Shown here: positions 2,000 to 56,595 of the stretch, one piece after another
How the letters are laid out: every line of letters begins with the position of its first letter
Numbering within the stretch: position 1 is the first letter of the stretch
Source of the DNA: Escherichia phage HK6
Length of the DNA stretch: 64,000 bases
Reading direction: 5' to 3' (one strand)
Sequence record: PP724615.1
Position numbers and translations under genes: made by a program
The notes under the pieces: model-generated
Databases searched by the model: none
Seen by the model: only the letters and a program-made list of their open reading frames with translations
What the model was told of the DNA's origin: nothing

Positions 2000-2027
2000 A
2001 GATTTATAAATTTGAGAGGAGAAAGAT

Positions 2028-2408
2028 ATGGAATTAAAGCCCTATATAGTTGAATCTACATGTGGTAGTTTCCATCTGGGTGTGGATGATATTGCTGAGG
2101 CTGTCTTTGCTGCTACAGGTGATTACTCGCATATAGAGGGTGTTGCATACCCTACCATTATTGGCGATTGGGTGGAAACAAATCTAGATGTATCGCCTTA
2201 TAACCCATATTGCTTGTTTGATGAAGACAGAGATGAAGTAAAATGTAATCTTGAATTTGTGTATAATAGAGTGTTAAAAGTATACCAACGTAGCCCCAAT
2301 GGGTACGAAGATATTACTTGGAGTATTAAACAGTATCTTAAAGATATATACTCTAGTTTTTCTGACGAAGACCTAGAAATAGTTGCAGTGGAGTTTAATA
2401 ATGACTAA
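2028..2408 (+). CDS. hypothetical acidic protein, 126 aa
   Basis: ORF with GAGAGGAG RBS 8 nt upstream, directly downstream of a strong promoter; D/E-rich; no recognisable motif. Confidence 0.6.
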   Translation: MELKPYIVESTCGSFHLGVDDIAEAVFAATGDYSHIEGVAYPTIIGDWVETNLDVSPYNPYCLFDEDRDEVKCNLEFVYNRVLKVYQRSPNGYEDITWSIKQYLKDIYSSFSDEDLEIVAVEFNND

Positions 2409-2607
2409 GAATGTGAAACACCTTAAATATCGCTTAATTTACAACGGACGTATGGAAACAGAAGATCTGGCCCAGTTAGCTATTAATTCTAAGGAGGTTA
2501 CAGTGCGTGCGCTGGCAATTGAAAAGTTGCGTGCCTCTTATGAAAATCGTGTTATGGAATTAGAGGAGAAACTTTATGGCATTCTCGAAGCCGATGCTAC
2601 CAGATAA
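2401..2607 (+). CDS. hypothetical protein, ~68 aa
   Basis: ATG at 2401 overlaps the stop of the upstream gene (TAATGA) with GGAG 8 nt upstream; the track ORF starts 18 nt earlier at 2383. Confidence 0.45.
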   Translation: MTKNVKHLKYRLIYNGRMETEDLAQLAINSKEVTVRALAIEKLRASYENRVMELEEKLYGILEADATR

Positions 2608-2797
2608 GGGTTTAAACGCCGCTTTGGAAAACGCATTAATGCAGCACTGGGAAACTGGCTATAAGGATGGTGTTGAATCCTGCGCTACTATGCTAGAAGT
2701 TATTGCTAATACCTTAATGGAGAAAGGCAATAAAGAATTAGCTGAGCTATTAGATAGTATTGGGCAAAACTTCAGAGAACAGGTGAAAAATGCGTAG
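2576..2797 (+). CDS. hypothetical protein, 73 aa
   Basis: ORF with GAGGAG RBS; overlapping start and stop with neighbours suggests translational coupling. Confidence 0.5.
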   Translation: MAFSKPMLPDKGLNAALENALMQHWETGYKDGVESCATMLEVIANTLMEKGNKELAELLDSIGQNFREQVKNA

Positions 2798-5342: not shown

Positions 5343-5384
5343 CCGTACTCAAGACCAATGATAGCACCATCCGGAAAATTTTAC

Positions 5385-5413
5385 TTGCAGGATGCCCAAA
5401 ATCTTGATATAAT
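5385..5413 (+). promoter_or_regulatory. sigma70-type promoter (TTGCAG-17-TATAAT)
   Basis: -35 TTGCAG 5385-5390, -10 TATAAT 5408-5413, followed by ATTTATATTGAATTGAGAGA resembling the downstream element of the other early promoters. Confidence 0.45.
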
Positions 5414-5911
5414 ATTTATATTGAATTGAGAGACATTAGTAAAAATTGATTTTGCTAATTTTTCTTGTTTACAATCCGCGATACGGAACAGTTAGGCTGC
5501 CCCATTAAGGGTTGTTTTAACTGTTACGTGTTAGTTTTTAAACAAATAGTTAATAGAATACTTAGCGATCTACATCCCGTAGGAACCCTGGTAAGGCCTC
5601 GAAGCAACCTAGTGTGAGGTGGTTGTGAAGTGAGACGGGAAGAGTGAAAAACTCTGAGAAGTGATGACGTAAGGTATACTGCATCTAGTATGAGCTAGTA
5701 CATGAAGCATTAGGTGAGCAAATCTGGCTTAGCGGCCATCCTCAAGGATTTGTGCGGTATAGTGAAGCGGCAGTGTAGCGTGAAAGGGGAAGTTGCCACC
5801 CCCCTTCAGTATTTGCGATTAATTGTTGAGAAATTGACAGTAACAGTTGTTCTATTCTTTCTGAATAGTCCTAAAGAAAACTTATTTCATTTCCAACACA
5901 GGAGTATTGTT

Positions 5912-8701
5912 GTGTTCTCAATCCTACAAGGTCATGCAGGATTTCATCGCGACTTAGCCACAGGCATTTGGCGAGAAGTTAAAGCAGAAGACTATCTTTT
6001 TGCTAAAAGATTTTCCTCAAAGCATCCTGAAGGTAAACCAGCTTCAATGCCCTTCAAGTTTGATGTAATTGATGAAGTTGATCCTCAAACCCTAGTAGAA
6101 ATGCTCCCTCTTATGAGACGTTTAACGTCTGACCCTCATATCGTTGCGGTACGAGGTCGATGTCTTGCACCCAAAAATAACGTGCGGCGTAAGAAGGGCA
6201 ACTTTAATGTATCTAACCCAAGTCATATAATTGCATTGGACGTGGATGGTATTGTAGATACAGGTGGTTGTAACAAGTTTGATCTTGTTGGCATGGCTCG
6301 ACATATTATTAGGATGTTAAATAGTATTAGTGAGGATATGTTTCCTCTTGATGCAGGGTTTATTGCTCATGCATCGTCTTCGGCTGGGCTAAAACCAGGT
6401 ATCCGAATGCACTTAATACTAGAATCTAATGTTAAAGTAACTCAGGGTCAAATCAAATTCTTATTTACATCTATCAACGAAAGTAGTAGACAAAAGTATG
6501 GCTTTGATATTGCCGACTTAGCTTATTACTCTTCCGTACAGCTCCATTATTTTGCAGATCCGTTATTTACCGATGGTATAGTAGATCCGTTTAAAGCGGA
6601 GGGTGCCTCACGTCTGGTATTTGTTAAGGGTTCTAAAGTAAATTTACCTAATAATCTGGTTGACTATGAAACAACTAGAGGTGAGTTTAAAGAGGAGTTC
6701 TACTCTTTACTCGACCAAATTAAGGGTAAAAAAGCTGCCTCTGATAAAGTAGAGGAAACTATCAGCGAACTAGAAGAAGCTGAGGATGGAGTGTACCTAC
6801 GTATTATACCTAAACTCTATCATAGAGCTTTGGAGGATGGTGTTGATTTTGCATGGCTAGAAAAAGAAATCCGTCCAGCCTTATCAGAATATATTGCAAC
6901 TAAAGATAATAGTCGCAATATTCAAGATTACTTTAATAACGGTCGTAAGCAGGCTCTAAAAGCATTTGTTAATAATTCTAAACGTGATATACCTGATGTT
7001 TTAAAAGGTATTCCACTTAAAAAGCTAGAAACTAACTCTCTAGAAACTGATAACTTCTTGAAATTAAATACTGTACCACCAGAAGGTTATATGACTTTTG
7101 TAAAAGCAAGTCTAGGTACAGGTAAAACTACGGCGGTTGTGCGTTGGTTAGATTCAGGAGTTATTAAAGGTAATTTCTTAGCAATTACCAATACTCGAGC
7201 ACTGGTATCTTCAAATGCTAAGAAATTTAGTGCAGGACAATATGATAAGTCTGTAGATATGCTTAATTTTAAGCGTGGCGCTATTGACCGTATGTCCACA
7301 ACTATACATTCTTTGCATAAGTTCAAGAGTTTTATTGGTCAAATTGATGCAATCTTTATCGATGAATGTGATGCTGTAATGAATGACCTATTATTCGCCC
7401 CGGTTGTTAAACAACGTCGTGAATGTATTCAGGTTCTTCGGGATATTCTTGCAACTGCAAAAATCATTATATTATCTGATGGGGATATTAGTGCAGAAAC
7501 AATTGAAGCATACGGTTCTTTGATTGAGTTTGATAAACCAGTAGCATTTTATAATCATCACCGTAAGATGCTGTCAAAAGCTCATGCTTATGAGTTCCCT
7601 GACGAATCCAGTATTTGGGTTGCACTTCAGACTTCTCTAGAGATGGGTGAGAAATCTATCCTAGTATCTGACTGTGGTCCAGATGAACTGAATGAGAAGG
7701 GCATGGCGTTGCGTCGTAATACGGGTGCGTTAGTTAAGGAAATCCACTCAAACTCTACGTCTGATGTAGATATTCGACGTATTCTGGATTACACAACTAA
7801 TGAGTTAATTGACCAACAAATTGATTGCTTATTATGTAGCCCATCCGTAACGAGCGGTGTTGACTTTAACTATTTTGATAACGTATTCGTTATTACTAGG
7901 ACCAGTAACCAAGCGCCAAACATGCGTTTTCAAGCAATCAGGCGCGACCGTGGCGCTCAGAACATTTATTATTTTATTGATAAATCTACGAGTGGATTCT
8001 CCGCAGGTTCTGAGCAATATAACATTGACGAGGGTTGGCTGGAGTTAGCACAGCAATTATACGCACGTCGCAGAGAGCTGGAATCTAGGAACTATACTAG
8101 TACTTTACGTTACTATTTGCTTGATCAGGGTGCAACTATTGATATTTTCAGTGAAAGCTGGGGAACTATCGAAGGTGCGGGGAAAGAATATACAGAAGAG
8201 CGAATCAAAGCCATTTTGTATTCAACCCCTGATTATTGTGCTCCACGCCATGCAGATGCGTATGAAGCTAAACTACTTCTTGTACGCTATTATCATCTTG
8301 AGTCTATTAAAGATGTAACAGTTGAGCATGTTGAACAATATATCAAGGATAAACCGAATGATCGAGCTGCATTCTTCCATAAGATGCACGAGATGTTCTG
8401 GGAAGATATTAAGAAGTGTTCAAATGTCACTATCAAACCATTCATAGAAGCTCTGAAAGGTAAGAAGAAAGATTTCTTCCTTAAAACAGGTCAGAGTGCT
8501 AACCCAAAATATGCAAGAATGTATCTTGGTATGATGGGTATTGGTAAGGATATGAACACGGAGAATATTGTAGACTGGTACAGAACCTATTGTAAAATCG
8601 AGTGTATGCCAATCCCATATAAGTTTATGACTGATGAGGAGAAACATATGCATGATGAAGCAATGGCAGAGCTAGGTGCTAGAAATGACAGTGAAGAATA
8701 A
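5912..8701 (+). CDS. replication-associated P-loop helicase (replication-origin-binding-protein-like), ~930 aa
   Basis: Walker A ASLGTGKTTAV, Walker B IFIDECDAV and later LLCSPSVTSGVDF; proposed start is GTG 5912 with AGGAG 7 nt upstream; the track start at 5714 is an in-frame GTG without RBS, and ATG 6047 is an alternative. Confidence 0.6.
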   Translation: MFSILQGHAGFHRDLATGIWREVKAEDYLFAKRFSSKHPEGKPASMPFKFDVIDEVDPQTLVEMLPLMRRLTSDPHIVAVRGRCLAPKNNVRRKKGNFNVSNPSHIIALDVDGIVDTGGCNKFDLVGMARHIIRMLNSISEDMFPLDAGFIAHASSSAGLKPGIRMHLILESNVKVTQGQIKFLFTSINESSRQKYGFDIADLAYYSSVQLHYFADPLFTDGIVDPFKAEGASRLVFVKGSKVNLPNNLVDYETTRGEFKEEFYSLLDQIKGKKAASDKVEETISELEEAEDGVYLRIIPKLYHRALEDGVDFAWLEKEIRPALSEYIATKDNSRNIQDYFNNGRKQALKAFVNNSKRDIPDVLKGIPLKKLETNSLETDNFLKLNTVPPEGYMTFVKASLGTGKTTAVVRWLDSGVIKGNFLAITNTRALVSSNAKKFSAGQYDKSVDMLNFKRGAIDRMSTTIHSLHKFKSFIGQIDAIFIDECDAVMNDLLFAPVVKQRRECIQVLRDILATAKIIILSDGDISAETIEAYGSLIEFDKPVAFYNHHRKMLSKAHAYEFPDESSIWVALQTSLEMGEKSILVSDCGPDELNEKGMALRRNTGALVKEIHSNSTSDVDIRRILDYTTNELIDQQIDCLLCSPSVTSGVDFNYFDNVFVITRTSNQAPNMRFQAIRRDRGAQNIYYFIDKSTSGFSAGSEQYNIDEGWLELAQQLYARRRELESRNYTSTLRYYLLDQGATIDIFSESWGTIEGAGKEYTEERIKAILYSTPDYCAPRHADAYEAKLLLVRYYHLESIKDVTVEHVEQYIKDKPNDRAAFFHKMHEMFWEDIKKCSNVTIKPFIEALKGKKKDFFLKTGQSANPKYARMYLGMMGIGKDMNTENIVDWYRTYCKIECMPIPYKFMTDEEKHMHDEAMAELGARNDSEE

Positions 8702-51836: not shown

Positions 51837-53756
51837 TTAGGTAAGGCGTTGAATTGTTATTTTTACATTAGGTAAGCAAGCTTTTAGCCCAGTTACATTA
51901 CTAACAGAAGCATTTAACCATACGCTAACATTACCATTACCATCATTTTTTAAATAATAAGTTATAGTATAGTATCCAGTTTGTGCATTACCACCATACA
52001 AGCTAGATACCCAGAAAGCTGTAGGAGTAAACATAGCACCACCACCACCAGTAGCATTAACCGCGGTTCCTTTGATAGTCATAAAAGGAACATACTTTCC
52101 TGATGGTAACGATAAAATTTGGTGAAGTTTTTTACTAACTGCATTACTAGTAATTCTAAGACGACTATCGCCTGTGGTTGCTCCTCTATTGAGAATCTCG
52201 TTAGGATTAAAACATCCAATACCACCCGCGGATAACCAAGTATCATCTAAGAATTCCATAGTACATACAATAGCCCCGTCTCTAGCGCTCTGTATACCTA
52301 ATCCCATAGTAGTTAAATGAACTGAACCCCCGCTATTAAATACAACATTCCCTGATAGTGTTGCAGATGCACTCCCAGATATTAAACGTAAAGGTATGTT
52401 ACTCTCACTCCATACATCACCATATTTATTACCTATTTTTGGTGGAGTACTTTGTACATACCAGGAACTAGAAGGCATAAAACTATAAATACTAACAGTA
52501 CTATTAGTTAACCCACTAATATTACCACCTTTGAATAGGGGAACATTACTTCCGTTAGTAACAGGTACTGCAAAGGTAGCTATACCGTTTACTCCAGTAG
52601 AGGCAGAACCACTACTAACATTATTACCAATATTTCGTATATCGGCCCTACTGCCGGGGTTATACCCAGGTTGAACGAAATTTATAAATTTCCAAGAAGT
52701 GGTAGATAGATTAACTCCACGAATGGTAAAATCAGTAGGACTTATTTTTATATCAGACCCTTTAAATAGGTCAGTACCTACAGTAAAGCCACTACCAGTA
52801 TACCTTAGATTAGTAACGTACCATGTAACTTTTTTAGGTGTTACACCTAAACTTTCACTATATATCCCTATAGGACCACCAGGACCATTATTTGGGTCAG
52901 ACATACCCTCCCAATACGCATACCCATGCGGTGCAGCTCTAGCAAAGCCTACAGCCCATGCCATAGAACTAGGATCAGTAGAGTTATAGTTTTTTACCAT
53001 TTCTGCAGCTGAGCTAGCTACCCCCTGTACTTTACCAGCAGTGGTATGGTTTGGCCCATTGTAACCGTAGACTATTCTGGGACAAGATTTGCCGCGTACA
53101 TAGATAGCATTAAAACCTAAACTTCGTGATCCAGGGTGTCTAACTGAGGCACTTTTAACTGTAAGAGTATTTCTATCAGCCACAACATTACTAGAGCCAT
53201 CCCAGGCGGATTTATAGAGTGCTGCACTGCCCATGAACATAGCTGCAGTAGCAAATCCTCGTCGCATAGCATAGGAACCAAACATGTGCTGACAACCAGT
53301 ACCATCTCGTAGTTTTTCTACTACACTACCAGAAGTACCAGTGTTAAAATACCCTACATCTAATGATAGATCAGCACTAGCGGTTATTTGGACTTTATTT
53401 CCACCACCGCTACTAACCTGAGGGTTTGTAGTACCATAAGCTTTTACCCCCACTCCCATGCTCATACCATTTAACATATGCCTAGTACCATCCGTAAACT
53501 CAACTTCAGTAAGAATAACTAAGTTAGAGTCATTATTATGTAGTGCAGCTATCCTACTTGGTAATTCAGCCCAGTAATATTCATTAGTCGCTAGAGCTAA
53601 ATTAGCAGAATAAGTTTCTGTAATAATAACATGAGGCATATTAGAATGAAATATAGTATTATTGTCGGGGTTAATATGCTGATTAATATCTCCTCCACTA
53701 CCCCTTTTTAAAGAAAGAGTAGGAGTGTTATTTAGTCTTCCTGCAAAAAAGCCCAT
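51837..53756 (-). CDS. receptor-binding tail protein (pb5/oad-like), 639 aa
   Basis: Size matches T5 pb5 (~640 aa); divergently paired with an llp-like lipoprotein gene; N-terminus resembles my recollection of pb5. Confidence 0.5.
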
Positions 53757-53776
53757 TTATCCTCCAAAAATTTAAT

Positions 53777-53805
53777 TGCTTAGATTGCTATAATCTTGTA
53801 TAATA
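53777..53805 (+). promoter_or_regulatory. sigma70-type promoter for the llp-like gene (TTGCTT-17-TATAAT)
   Basis: -35 TTGCTT 53777-53782, 17-nt spacer, -10 TATAAT 53800-53805, then TTATAAATTAAATAGAGGAGGA and ATG 53836. Confidence 0.5.
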
Positions 53806-53835
53806 GTATTATAAATTAAATAGAGGAGGATGTAA

Positions 53836-54069
53836 ATGAAAAAATTATTTTTAGCTATGGCAGTTGTGCTTCTTTCGGCTTGCTCTACTTTTGGACCAAA
53901 AGATATTAAATGTGAAGCCTATTATGTACAAGATCATGTTAAATATAAGGCTAATGTTTTTGATAGGAAAGGGGATATGTTTTTAGTGGCACCAATTATG
54001 GCTTATGGGTCATTTTGGGCTCCTGTAAGCTATTTTACTGAGGGAAATACCTGTGAAGGAGTTTTCTAA
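53836..54069 (+). CDS. llp: small lipoprotein (Llp-like, receptor-masking superinfection exclusion type), 77 aa
   Basis: Signal peptide with lipobox LLSAC; small size; divergent from the receptor-binding protein gene as in T5 oad/llp. Confidence 0.65.
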   Translation: MKKLFLAMAVVLLSACSTFGPKDIKCEAYYVQDHVKYKANVFDRKGDMFLVAPIMAYGSFWAPVSYFTEGNTCEGVF

Positions 54070-54370
54070 AGAGAAGCCCTTCCAGGAACTCATGCCACTT
54101 GAGATGAATCCTAGGGCAAAAGCAATTCACGATGCAATTAATGAAATCATTCAGGGCGTCATACAAGACACTAGGGAAGATGTAATGGGAACATCATTTA
54201 TTCTAGAAGAATCTGGATTTGATGAAATGATGAACCTCGTAGGAACAGTTATAATGGTTCGTGCAATTGCTAGAATATTCCAAATACCACATTTACGGGA
54301 GCATGAAAGACATGTCAAACGGCAACAAAAGAAAGAACAGACGCGGAGAAGTGTACGAAGCGTGGATTAA
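54053..54370 (+). CDS. hypothetical protein, 105 aa
   Basis: ORF overlapping the llp stop; no motif. Confidence 0.4.
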   Translation: MKEFSKEKPFQELMPLEMNPRAKAIHDAINEIIQGVIQDTREDVMGTSFILEESGFDEMMNLVGTVIMVRAIARIFQIPHLREHERHVKRQQKKEQTRRSVRSVD

Positions 54371-54446
54371 CATTTACGGATTTGGTTTTGTATTATTCCT
54401 AGTCTTCGTAGGTTTTTGGTTAGCAGCTATGGCGGGGTGGATCTAA
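54312..54446 (+). CDS. small membrane protein (C-terminal TM), ~45 aa
   Basis: ATG 54312 with GGGAG ~10 nt upstream; C-terminal hydrophobic helix GFGFVLFLVFVGFWLAAMAGWI; overlaps the 3' end of the previous ORF, so one of the two may be spurious. Confidence 0.3.
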   Translation: MSNGNKRKNRRGEVYEAWINIYGFGFVLFLVFVGFWLAAMAGWI

Positions 54447-54601
54447 TGGAATGGGTAATTATTGGCATATTCGTCTTGTTAATACTTCTCTTTGTAGGCT
54501 TACGTGTAATAGATACCTCTGTAACCCAAACAGAAATTAAATTAATGCAGTTGAGTAATAGATTATCTAGAATCGAAACTTTATTAGAGGAGCGTAAATA
54601 A
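54446..54601 (+). CDS. small single-pass membrane protein, 51 aa
   Basis: MEWVIIGIFVLLILLFVGL TM helix followed by charged helix ...RLSRIETLLEERK; start within the track ORF 54416-54601. Confidence 0.45.
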   Translation: MEWVIIGIFVLLILLFVGLRVIDTSVTQTEIKLMQLSNRLSRIETLLEERK

Positions 54602-54708
54602 TGGAATGGGTAATTATTGCACTACTAGGGATTGTGATTATTGGGCAGTGTATTCTAGATAATCACTTAGCTAGAATTGAAACCTTACTATCGGAGAAAC
54701 GTAAATGA
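54601..54708 (+). CDS. small single-pass membrane protein, paralog of the previous, 35 aa
   Basis: MEWVIIALLGIVIIGQCIL...LARIETLLSEKRK; start overlaps the previous stop (TAATG) and its stop overlaps the next start. Confidence 0.4.
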   Translation: MEWVIIALLGIVIIGQCILDNHLARIETLLSEKRK

Positions 54709-54899
54709 TGGAGGTGGCGGTTACACTAATAGTAATATTAGTCTGGGTAATCCTCATTGTCTCTCGTATCGTGTATCTCCGCCTAAAAACTCTAGAAGCT
54801 CAGGTGAAACAACAACAAGTTATTCTAGAAAAGCTAGTACTACTGCAACGCTGTGATAGCACCCGTATTCTGCAAATTGAGAGGGAATTAGATGTTTAG
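54705..54899 (+). CDS. small single-pass membrane protein, 64 aa
   Basis: N-terminal TM helix VTLIVILVWVILIVSRIV followed by a coiled-coil-like tail; translationally coupled. Confidence 0.45.
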   Translation: MMEVAVTLIVILVWVILIVSRIVYLRLKTLEAQVKQQQVILEKLVLLQRCDSTRILQIERELDV

Positions 54900-55137
54900 T
54901 ATTGTAGTTGCTTTTATTATCGGGGTACTCGCGGGGGTTTTCGGGACGACTGCGGCAATCAACAAGCATCGTAAATATATTGCGGAAGTATCGCGGGAGA
55001 TTGCGGAAAGGGAGCGGAAGTTTGACGAGAAACGTGCGGAGTTTGAACGAGAATGGTCGGATGGATCTCGGGCGTCGCGGAAGAGATTTCGCATGTCAGA
55101 ATCAGGAGACAAGCCGGTAGACAGGAGAAGCTCATGA
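54892..55137 (+). CDS. small single-pass membrane protein, 81 aa
   Basis: N-terminal TM helix FSIVVAFIIGVLAGVFG followed by a highly charged tail (REIAERERKFDEKRAEFEREW). Confidence 0.45.
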   Translation: MFSIVVAFIIGVLAGVFGTTAAINKHRKYIAEVSREIAERERKFDEKRAEFEREWSDGSRASRKRFRMSESGDKPVDRRSS

Positions 55138-55607
55138 TATTTAAGAAGATTCCAGATGAAATAGCTGGTAGCTTCTCATATGACCCAGATACAGGACAAT
55201 TCTCCCCTATTGTAGGGTATACAAAGGAAAGTGAAGGATATCTTGTATACCGTCACCCTAAATTTGGGGAGTTTAAGGTACATCGCCTAGCGTGGTGGTA
55301 TACCTACGGAGAAGATCCTGGAGAGTCTCTAATAGACCATAAGAATTGTGAGGGATTTGATAATAGAAAGAGTAATCTTCGTAAAGCATCCCACGAGCAG
55401 AACTTAGCAAATCAGCGATTATCAAAGAATAATACCTCAGGGGTTAAGGGTGTATATTGGGACAATACTCGTAAGAAGTGGAGAGCACGCGGGAGATATC
55501 AAGGAAAATATTTTATCTCGGCCTACTTCGAGAGTCTCGAGGAAGCTGAGAGTGCAATAAGGGAAGCACGTGAGAAAGTGTGTGGTGAGTTCACAAATCA
55601 CGGTTAA
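55134..55607 (+). CDS. HNH homing endonuclease with AP2-like domain, ~157 aa
   Basis: HRLAWWYTYGEDPGESLIDHKNCEGFDNRKSNL (HNH_3 pattern) and GVKGVYWDNTRKKWRARGRYQGKYFISAYFESLEEAESA (AP2-like); ATG 55134 with AGGAG RBS. Confidence 0.6.
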   Translation: MIFKKIPDEIAGSFSYDPDTGQFSPIVGYTKESEGYLVYRHPKFGEFKVHRLAWWYTYGEDPGESLIDHKNCEGFDNRKSNLRKASHEQNLANQRLSKNNTSGVKGVYWDNTRKKWRARGRYQGKYFISAYFESLEEAESAIREAREKVCGEFTNHG

Positions 55608-55780
55608 TAGCGCTAATTTGGAAATCTTGAAATTTCATAAGATTACACATACGGGTGTGCCCAGTGGCTAGGGGGAGAATACTTAGTCTGCTAACCGCCA
55701 CCCCCGTTACTATTACCATGCTAACTATTTCACCCTGCAACCATTTTAATTGCAAGGTGAAACAATTTCAACTTTAATTA

Positions 55781-56515
55781 TTACGCAACCTTTAGTTTCT
55801 CAATATATTGTTGCGGGCTGCAACTATATTCTGCGCGTTCTTCTTCTGTCATACTTTCCCAACATAGTTTTAAGCGATCGGCTAGGAACTGATAATCATT
55901 ATCATCCTCAAGAGATTCATCAATAAAGGTTCCGCCTATCAATGCCACGCCGATTGATAGAATATCATTAACGGCTTGCGCGTCCAACGTTTTAAATCCA
56001 TATGATGCCGCCGCCGCCAATACTCCTTTATGATCATCAATCATTGTAAAATCAGCGTTCGGATATAGTTGCTTAAATAATTCAAAATAATAACTTTTAT
56101 ATACTGCGTCCTTGCTGTGGTATATTTCGCTAACCTTATCAGCCTCAAAATATTTATGCAGTGTATCGCGGGAAAATACACGGATATTGGTATCCCCACG
56201 CCCGCGCAATCCTTGCTTGCGTAGGAAGTAATAATCTGACTTGCTCATCAGGCGAGCGGTGCAAATAATGTTTAAAGTATTTGCGTCATTCATGCATTGG
56301 CGCATATATTCCACCAAAGGCAATAAGGTATCTCGCATTATTAAATGATGTTTGCAAGCCTCGTTTTTGTATTTATTTAAATTTAAATTCCCGTCGCTAT
56401 CAAAGCAAGGCGCGACACGATGAAACGAATTAACGATAGTGCCATCAAGATCCCAGATCATGACGCGGGTAATATGCGGAAAAGCGCGGGTAATATTCGT
56501 TTTTACTTGATTCAT
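55781..56515 (-). CDS. dmp: HAD-family 5'-deoxyribonucleotidase (dmp-like), ~244 aa
   Basis: HAD motif I MIWDLDGTIVNS and motif IV MIDDHKGV; first pre-early-type gene on the minus strand; start chosen at ATG 56515, which has the conserved GGAG element (track ORF extends to 56557). Confidence 0.55.
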   Translation of the reverse strand: MNQVKTNITRAFPHITRVMIWDLDGTIVNSFHRVAPCFDSDGNLNLNKYKNEACKHHLIMRDTLLPLVEYMRQCMNDANTLNIICTARLMSKSDYYFLRKQGLRGRGDTNIRVFSRDTLHKYFEADKVSEIYHSKDAVYKSYYFELFKQLYPNADFTMIDDHKGVLAAAASYGFKTLDAQAVNDILSIGVALIGGTFIDESLEDDNDYQFLADRLKLCWESMTEEERAEYSCSPQQYIEKLKVA

Positions 56516-56595
56516 TTTGTTACGTTCTCCAATAAAGGGATGTAGTTTATCCAGCATTACCCGCTATTTATCAGCGGGCAATAATAAATCAACTA

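Follow-up and report, generated by a model that had tools for sequence, protein, structure and literature searches.

Bacteriophage T5 is one of the classic model phages, and biocontrol makes wide use of T5-like phages. Its genome carries, between llp and the right terminal repeat, four small genes that are listed as orf1-orf4 in GenBank record X75922 (llp/oad/dmp) and as T5.159-T5.162 in NC_005859, where each is annotated as 'contains single transmembrane domain'. Record X75922 reportedly accompanied the 1994 llp study of Decker et al. We have examined the equivalent locus of Escherichia phage HK6 in a DNA stretch of 64,000 nt (PP724615.1; from here on, the window), in which five small open reading frames (ORFs), A to E, follow each other head to tail on the + strand at positions 54312..55137. 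ORFs A, C, D and E are the T5 genes orf1, orf2, orf3 and orf4, with gene order and overlaps unchanged and 75-94% of the amino acids identical. With respect to T5, the window adds a paralog of orf2 (ORF B), an intact copy of a gene that we call X105, an HNH gene after orf4 and different last 14 residues in ORF E. The locus is already known: annotated in T5 since 1994 and in hundreds of relatives, it is a hypothetical gene set and not a discovery.

The same A-B-C-D-E architecture is present in the Tequintavirus phages DaisyDussoix (Bas31), SP01 and NBSal005, whose B DNA is 95-98% identical to that of the window. These phages differ from HK6 in having another receptor-binding protein (RBP), a non-homologous Llp-type lipoprotein and no intact X105, and their arrays are annotated as hypothetical proteins. 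The Llp/Cor lipoproteins (phrog_1119) share with A-E the operon and the early lytic-conversion context, but they reside in the outer membrane, whereas A-E are predicted inner-membrane proteins without similarity to them. A further point of comparison is offered by T4 Imm and Sp, P22 SieA and HK97 gp15, small inner-membrane exclusion proteins that are expressed early or constitutively and act after adsorption; the genes for such proteins often lie beside tail or receptor genes, and Imm has two transmembrane (TM) segments. No sequence or profile similarity of A-E to any of them was found, and the likeness would be one of analogy.

With high confidence, we identify the HK6 locus as a T5-type llp operon of a FhuA-type Tequintavirus, in which eight overlapping genes are read from the llp promoter, A, C, D and E correspond to T5 orf1-orf4, B is a tandem duplicate of C flanked by 21-nt repeats that allow its precise loss, and all five ORFs encode genuine, selected single-helix proteins.

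Five small ORFs under purifying selection

All five ORFs gave full-length profile matches to the PHROG families of T5 orf1-orf4, three of which are labelled 'unknown function' and one 'membrane protein'. ORF A (54312..54446) corresponds to orf1/T5.159 (phrog_8596, E = 9e-29; 75% identity to T5.159), and is followed by ORF B (54446..54601; phrog_6369, E = 1.5e-16), which T5 lacks. ORF C (54601..54708) corresponds to orf2/T5.160 and belongs to the same family as B (phrog_6369, E = 3.8e-26; 94% identity to T5.160). The array continues with ORF D (54705..54899; orf3/T5.161; phrog_5851, E = 5.7e-31; 75% identity to T5.161) and ends with ORF E (54892..55137; orf4/T5.162; phrog_6447, E = 9.8e-49), whose residues 1-67 are 94% identical to T5.162. 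When the counterparts of T5, Kenya-K36 and SP01 were considered together, identities ranged from 75 to 100%.

A preliminary description, made from the letters of the window, had proposed a tandem array of small single-pass membrane proteins with charged or coiled-coil tails, two of them clear paralogs, with stops overlapping starts. The five ORFs (44, 51, 35, 64 and 81 aa) were exactly where it had placed them, each with a single hydrophobic core, and the paralogs proved to be B and C. Consecutive ORFs overlapped by 1 nt at the A-B and B-C junctions (TAATG in both cases), 4 nt at C-D (ATGA) and 8 nt at D-E, and a Shine-Dalgarno-like motif was found 6-10 nt before each start, inside the preceding ORF. 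This arrangement, conserved in relatives, is the one by which translationally coupled operons are recognized, and the junctions are compatible with such coupling. The same description had regarded disruption of the ORFs in close relatives as an argument against its proposal. No such general disruption was seen in a comparison with T5, X75922, Kenya-K36 and 26 loci from IMG/VR: in nearly all of these 29 related loci the ORFs were intact and their lengths and junction coordinates were kept, and in all relatives compared the stop coordinate of A coincided with the start coordinate of the next gene. Lesions were rare and consisted of a D that stops eight codons early (locus L023), an in-frame deletion in E (locus L029) and, in the protein database, a single E with a frameshift (P0084).

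Nucleotide variation analysis showed that purifying selection acts on all five ORFs. The ratios of nonsynonymous to synonymous substitution (dN/dS, Nei-Gojobori) in the called frames were 0.16 for A, 0.09 for B (a value that rests on 3 distinct sequences), 0.18 for C, 0.39 for D and 0.36 for E, with third-position changes in excess. The two shifted frames gave values of 0.66-2.3 and contained abundant stops.

T5 and most relatives carry four ORFs; B is the fifth in the window. Its paralogy with C was supported by a pairwise BLASTP match (E = 3e-7), besides the shared phrog_6369 family, and the two proteins align at both ends (MEWVII... and ...RIETLLxExRK) with an insertion of 16-17 residues in B. 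At the DNA level, B lies between two copies of a perfect 21-nt direct repeat, TAATGGAATGGGTAATTATTG, the left one covering the A stop and the B start (54444..54464, +) and the right one covering the B stop and the C start (54599..54619, +). The spacing between copies, 155 nt, is the length of the B unit, and the A-C junction of T5 has the sequence predicted from recombination between the two copies. B DNA was found in only 36 phage records, DaisyDussoix (Bas31) and SP01 among them, all at ≥90% identity. Because the repeat brackets B and the T5 junction fits the recombinant, precise gain or loss of B by homologous recombination is the likely cause of its presence polymorphism.

Distribution of the array and its independence from receptor type

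We next consider how the array is distributed. A megablast search with positions 53700..55700 matched 350 phage records, all of them T5-like. For individual genes, tblastn counts were obtained against about 50,700 phage records, and the 441 records carrying dmp at ≥80% identity served as a proxy for the Markadamsvirinae. ORF E was present in 443 records and ORF A in 413; since these numbers compare with 441 dmp records, A and E belong to the core of the subfamily and are near-universal in its T5-like members. The presence of B, D and intact X105 was variable: D was found in 193 records and was absent in 8 of the 29 loci, and B occurred in about 36 of about 440 T5-like records. The architectures found among the loci were A-B-C-D-E, A-C-D-E, A-C(short)-E, A-D'-E and A-C(short)-D'-E, and D exists as divergent allelic types with 34-42% identity. 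In more distant Demerecviridae, the array genes were not found by sequence.

The array did not follow the receptor. In DaisyDussoix, A-B-C-D-E stands behind a different RBP and a non-homologous exclusion lipoprotein of 88 aa, comparable arrays stand behind other Llp types in SP01 and in locus L028, and A and E remain 75-98% identical while Llp and RBP types swap. Since an exchange of RBP and Llp for non-homologous types leaves the array as it is, the array is not tied to a particular receptor. Two statements of the preliminary description have to be amended in this light and in that of the neighbouring genes. Its view of the locus as accessory and fast-evolving fails for A and E, which are core, and is at odds with the purifying selection on all five ORFs; only B and D vary in presence. 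Its placement of the array beside llp holds as far as linkage is concerned, but the two are not directly adjacent, because it overlooked X105 (54053..54370), which intervenes.

Other genes were observed at this slot or beside dmp in two further phages. In the T5-like Klebsiella phage vB_Kpn13-P2, the llp/orf1-4 slot beside the RBP gene (5361..6044, - strand) encodes proteins of 74 and 151 aa, in both of which a TM helix at the N-terminus is combined with a coiled-coil tail; neither showed detectable homology to the T5 ORFs, and no lipoprotein was found there. Architecture rather than sequence is what is conserved at this slot, a positional analogy that we count in favour of the envelope role considered below. 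In Proteus phage M4H10_20, five consecutive overlapping ORFs of 115-126 aa lie beside dmp (5641..7430, - strand); they have no obvious TM segments and may represent a tandem paralog array.

The llp operon and its flanking genes

The surroundings of the array have the T5-like layout, namely an RBP gene, a divergent llp, a run of small + strand ORFs and then dmp. The synteny is that of T5 NC_005859 and X75922, with the array 3′ of llp, divergent from the RBP gene and directly before the right terminal repeat. The RBP gene (51837..53756, - strand) encodes 639 aa and occupies the pb5 position. The first gene of the operon, llp (53836..54069, +), encodes a FhuA-blocking lytic-conversion lipoprotein precursor of 77 aa that is 97% identical to T5 Llp, matches phrog_1119 (E = 1.4e-18) and shows the lipobox LLSAC in its translation. 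A consensus scan located a promoter-like site, TTGCTA-16-TATTAT, 5′ of llp (53785..53812, +), at a position that matches the annotated llp promoter of T5; the number of promoter-like sites was not above the shuffled expectation, so that this call rests on the T5 annotation, in which promoters occur solely upstream of llp. The scan for terminator-like sites, whose count was likewise not above the shuffled expectation, found none between llp and 55810, and the only hairpin of this kind 3′ of the operon (55810..55824, +) lies in the terminal repeat, within the 3′ end of the convergent dmp gene (55781..56557, - strand).

Along llp-X105-A-B-C-D-E-HNH, successive genes overlap by 17, 59, 1, 1, 4, 8 and 4 nt, with Shine-Dalgarno-like motifs 6-10 nt upstream of the starts. 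The chain thus continues past the array into an HNH gene (55134..55607), beyond the stretch covered by the preliminary description. Given the overlapping genes, the lack of a terminator-like site before 55810 and the location of the T5 promoters only 5′ of llp, the locus is best read as one string of eight overlapping genes, and the array would be co-transcribed with llp.

X105 (54053..54370, +) encodes 105 aa from a GTG start that is required because the N-termini of its homologs are conserved, and a Shine-Dalgarno-like GAGG lies 9 nt 5′ of this start. Its overlaps are with the end of llp and the start of ORF A. The protein matched phrog_16810 (E = 6.8e-49) and 25 homologs, all T5-like, and tblastn matched X105 in 311 phage records, with nearly the full length covered in 170. 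Epseptimavirus-type loci have an intact copy; in locus L028 the order is Llp-type lipoprotein, X105, A, C, D, E. The 164-nt llp-orf1 'spacer' of T5 is a degraded X105 remnant. The AF2 model of X105 was helical (pLDDT 68), with no clear TM segment, signal peptide or lipobox, and had no fold match beyond its own family in BFVD and PDB. Homologs in the FepA-type phages H8 and S124 bear the name 'receptor blocking protein', which appears to be positional for a protein without signal peptide or lipobox. In H8 (2009..2781 of its locus), a second HNH-like ORF of 115 aa was seen between the X105 homolog and ORF A, and the C-terminus of X105 was altered; no Llp-sized ORF was found between the RBP region and X105 in this unannotated draft record, from which the RBP frame was not recovered.

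The gene at 55134..55607 (+) encodes a homing-type endonuclease with HNH_3 and AP2 domains (PF13392, E = 2.5e-8; phrog_99, E = 2.4e-52). Its start overlaps the ORF E stop by 4 nt (ATGA) and is preceded by a Shine-Dalgarno-like motif. Only some relatives have this gene, which is present in Kenya-K36 and SP01 and absent in T5. The last ~14 residues of ORF E are variable and track the element that follows, be it the HNH type present here, another HNH type or the repeat directly; insertion of the endonuclease would appear to reshape ORF E at its 3′ end. By comparison with Kenya-K36 and T5, where the direct terminal repeat starts 84 nt past the HNH stop and 42 nt past orf4, respectively, the repeat boundary is expected at ~55608..55780. 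The window runs on into dmp and other pre-early genes and thus spans the junction between unique region and repeat.

Predicted topology and possible roles

Each of the proteins A-E contained one hydrophobic core, with a best 17-residue Kyte-Doolittle mean between 2.46 (A) and 3.18, that is, one predicted TM helix per protein, as in the members of the T5 orf1-orf4 families. In ORF A, a basic N-terminus of 20 residues, five of them lysine or arginine (K/R), precedes a C-terminal membrane helix with a small-xxx-small motif, and the C-terminal half (FWLAAMAGW) is nearly invariant. B, C and D have their TM helix at the N-terminus, preceded by 2-3 residues and directly followed by K/R. Residues L, I, V, M and F occupy 75-80% of the heptad a/d positions in their tails versus 29-41% overall (75% versus 41% in D). 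The tail of C is short and contains an invariant DNHLARIE; the tail of D is leucine-zipper-like and ends in an invariant ERELDV, the pattern QRxDxxRIxQxERELDV being kept even in the alleles with 34-42% identity. A comparison by hhalign of B/C with D gave a probability of 49% (E = 1.7e-4, 28 columns), no more than a hint that B/C and D could be distant paralogs. No match was obtained by hhalign between D and E, and E was not detectably related to B/C or D.

In ORF E, no residue precedes the helix and K/R directly follow it. The helix has invariant positions G11xxxG15xxG18xxxA22, a glycine zipper, and the tail of 58 residues, with 18 K/R and 13 D/E, forms a predicted E/R/K-rich amphipathic helix with a high helical hydrophobic moment. 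The AF2 model is a single helix spanning residues 2-70 (pLDDT 68). The G+C content of ORF E is 50% (GC3 50%), a level reached by 1.5% of the 246-nt segments of the window, whose mean is 39.4%, and the gene contains an imperfect internal 21-nt tandem repeat (54979/55000) coding for IAEVSRE/IAERERK. According to the positive-inside rule, ORF A would be tail-anchored with its N-terminus inside. B-E would be oriented with the N-terminus out and the C-terminus in, because K/R directly follow the helix; 0-3 residues would lie outside and the tails would face the cytoplasm at the inner membrane.

Searches outside the family returned little. ORF E had 87 matches among 5.8 billion clustered proteins, and its profile 5 matches among 1.84 billion representatives, all T5-like. 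A-E gave nothing above threshold against Pfam, NCBIfam, PADLOC and PDB sequences, and Rfam gave nothing on 53000..56500. Below threshold, residues 4-43 of E (TM and juxtamembrane helix) aligned to model positions 23-62 of the LapA domain (PF06305, formerly DUF1049), with a best score of 23.1 bits (E = 7.1e-5) against a gathering cut-off of 28 bits, and 8 of 12 family members matched at E ≤ 0.01; LapA has two TM helices, and the similarity may be compositional. Several known classes were considered and set aside. Spanins were rejected as T5-like spanins are encoded elsewhere and the tails of A-E are 16-58 aa long and predicted to be cytoplasmic; A-E lack the lipobox of o- or u-spanins, which in this locus only llp has, and neither the long periplasmic coiled-coil domain nor the lysis-cassette location of i-spanins was found. 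An Llp/Cor-like identity was rejected because only 53836..54069 matches phrog_1119, and A-E have no such match, lipobox or signal peptide. A holin or antiholin would be expected next to an endolysin gene, and the array is not. In the records of relatives (SP01, JLBYU43, SP15, ESCO30, EC100 and others), product names such as 'receptor blocking protein', 'tail assembly protein', 'tail fiber protein' or 'lysozyme' are attached to A, B and D homologs or to features under the matches; these inconsistent names have no profile support and are likely annotation drift. The roles put forward in the preliminary description, namely superinfection exclusion, membrane remodelling and interference with host defence, are plausible; no database, fold or paper that was consulted gives these genes a function.

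The reading that we favour, to which we assign a probability of about 0.3 for the mechanism and not for the anatomy, is that A-E act as a microprotein complex of the inner membrane, made early and with its tails in the cytoplasm, which would give exclusion or protect the envelope independently of the receptor, by analogy with Imm, Sp, SieA and HK97 gp15. Coupled translation, the glycine zipper of E and the small-xxx-small motif of A suggest that the proteins might assemble, early in infection, into a homo- or hetero-oligomeric complex of the inner membrane. Such a complex would work at the cytoplasmic membrane independently of the receptor and would complement Llp, which acts instead at a specific outer-membrane receptor. 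It could block or reseal the DNA-entry route of T5-like tails, and so lead to post-adsorption exclusion or to membrane protection. In a more specific and rather speculative version, which we think improbable as it stands, A and E would form a pair with C, B and D as coiled-coil modulators, a Markadamsvirinae-specific complex that gates or seals the DNA channel. It would serve either as a second lytic-conversion layer or for a resealing that restores membrane potential after two-step DNA transfer, and would be made of microproteins only, with no homologs elsewhere.

Several points weigh against a role in exclusion or envelope protection. The topology of A-E is a prediction from the positive-inside rule, complex formation was deduced from gene arrangement and helix motifs, and co-transcription with llp from the absence of predicted signals. 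The Pfam, NCBIfam, PADLOC, PDB-sequence, Rfam and 1.84-billion-protein profile searches yielded nothing outside T5-like phages and no evidence of function. Literature searches retrieved no paper on orf1-orf4/T5.159-162 and no functional data, and the supplement of the CRISPRi-ART T5 screen has no entry for the array genes. Cloned Llp alone is reported to be sufficient for T5 resistance, so that a second exclusion layer is not obviously needed. Finally, A and E belong to the core, and genes for exclusion are usually accessory.

This core conservation, together with purifying selection, suits a housekeeping role in infection, and it is on these grounds that A-E could instead be host-takeover effectors whose cytoplasmic coiled-coil tails inhibit or re-purpose a host inner-membrane machine, be it the divisome, FtsH/LapB-LpxC or a transport or energy system, as SPO1 gp56 and lambda Kil exemplify. 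We regard this as possible, though doubtful. The tails are predicted to be cytoplasmic, E shows the sub-threshold similarity to LapA described above, and it also has a trivial FtsL-like match (E = 0.011). However, every cross-family match falls under curated thresholds and is typical of composition (a TM segment with a charged helix), A-E have no known host partner, and the genes sit in the llp/RBP module and not in the pre-early host-shutoff region.

The presence polymorphism of B (36) and D (193) among about 440 records, the divergent D alleles and the mosaic, recombining character of a region with homing endonucleases would fit a function in counter-defence, in which some members, chiefly B and D, neutralise membrane-anchored abortive-infection or other defence effectors. 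We consider this unlikely: dN/dS was below 0.4 in all ORFs, with no sign of diversifying selection, the B copies are all ≥90% identical, no PADLOC or anti-defence family was matched, and A and E are core and not accessory.

Small single-TM proteins with charged cytoplasmic tails also look like holins or antiholins, and A-E might on this basis regulate lysis timing by modulating the T5 holin, which is encoded elsewhere. In T5-like phages, holin, endolysin and both spanins are encoded in a lysis cassette of their own (PMC4342426), no lysis gene adjoins the array, and A-E have neither a lipobox nor a periplasmic domain of spanin length, all of which make a role in lysis distinctly unlikely.

Still less credible is the suggestion, implied by the tail and receptor product names given to A, B and D homologs in several GenBank records and by the proximity of the pb5 gene, that the proteins are virion or tail-assembly helpers for the adjacent RBP. 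These names differ between records for the same protein, for which PHROGs give 'unknown function', the array is transcribed divergently from pb5 and together with the early gene llp, and it stays constant while the RBP type changes. That A-E are chance open frames or decaying remnants without product, as their size of 35-81 aa, the other open frames in the E region and the lesions in a few relatives (D of L023, E of L029, P0084) might hint, is contradicted by a purifying-selection signal that is frame-specific, by lengths and junctions conserved across hundreds of genomes and by the Shine-Dalgarno-like motif before each start, and can be practically dismissed.

What is at stake is a set of four to five conserved, probably co-expressed membrane microproteins, encoded beside the receptor module of T5-like phages and on record for thirty years. 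The results presented here turn them into a defined and tractable target, composed of genes that are under selection and independent of receptor type, two of which are core to the subfamily. If it is true that the array controls DNA entry, the integrity of the membrane or a machine in the host membrane, it would represent a new step in T5 infection biology.

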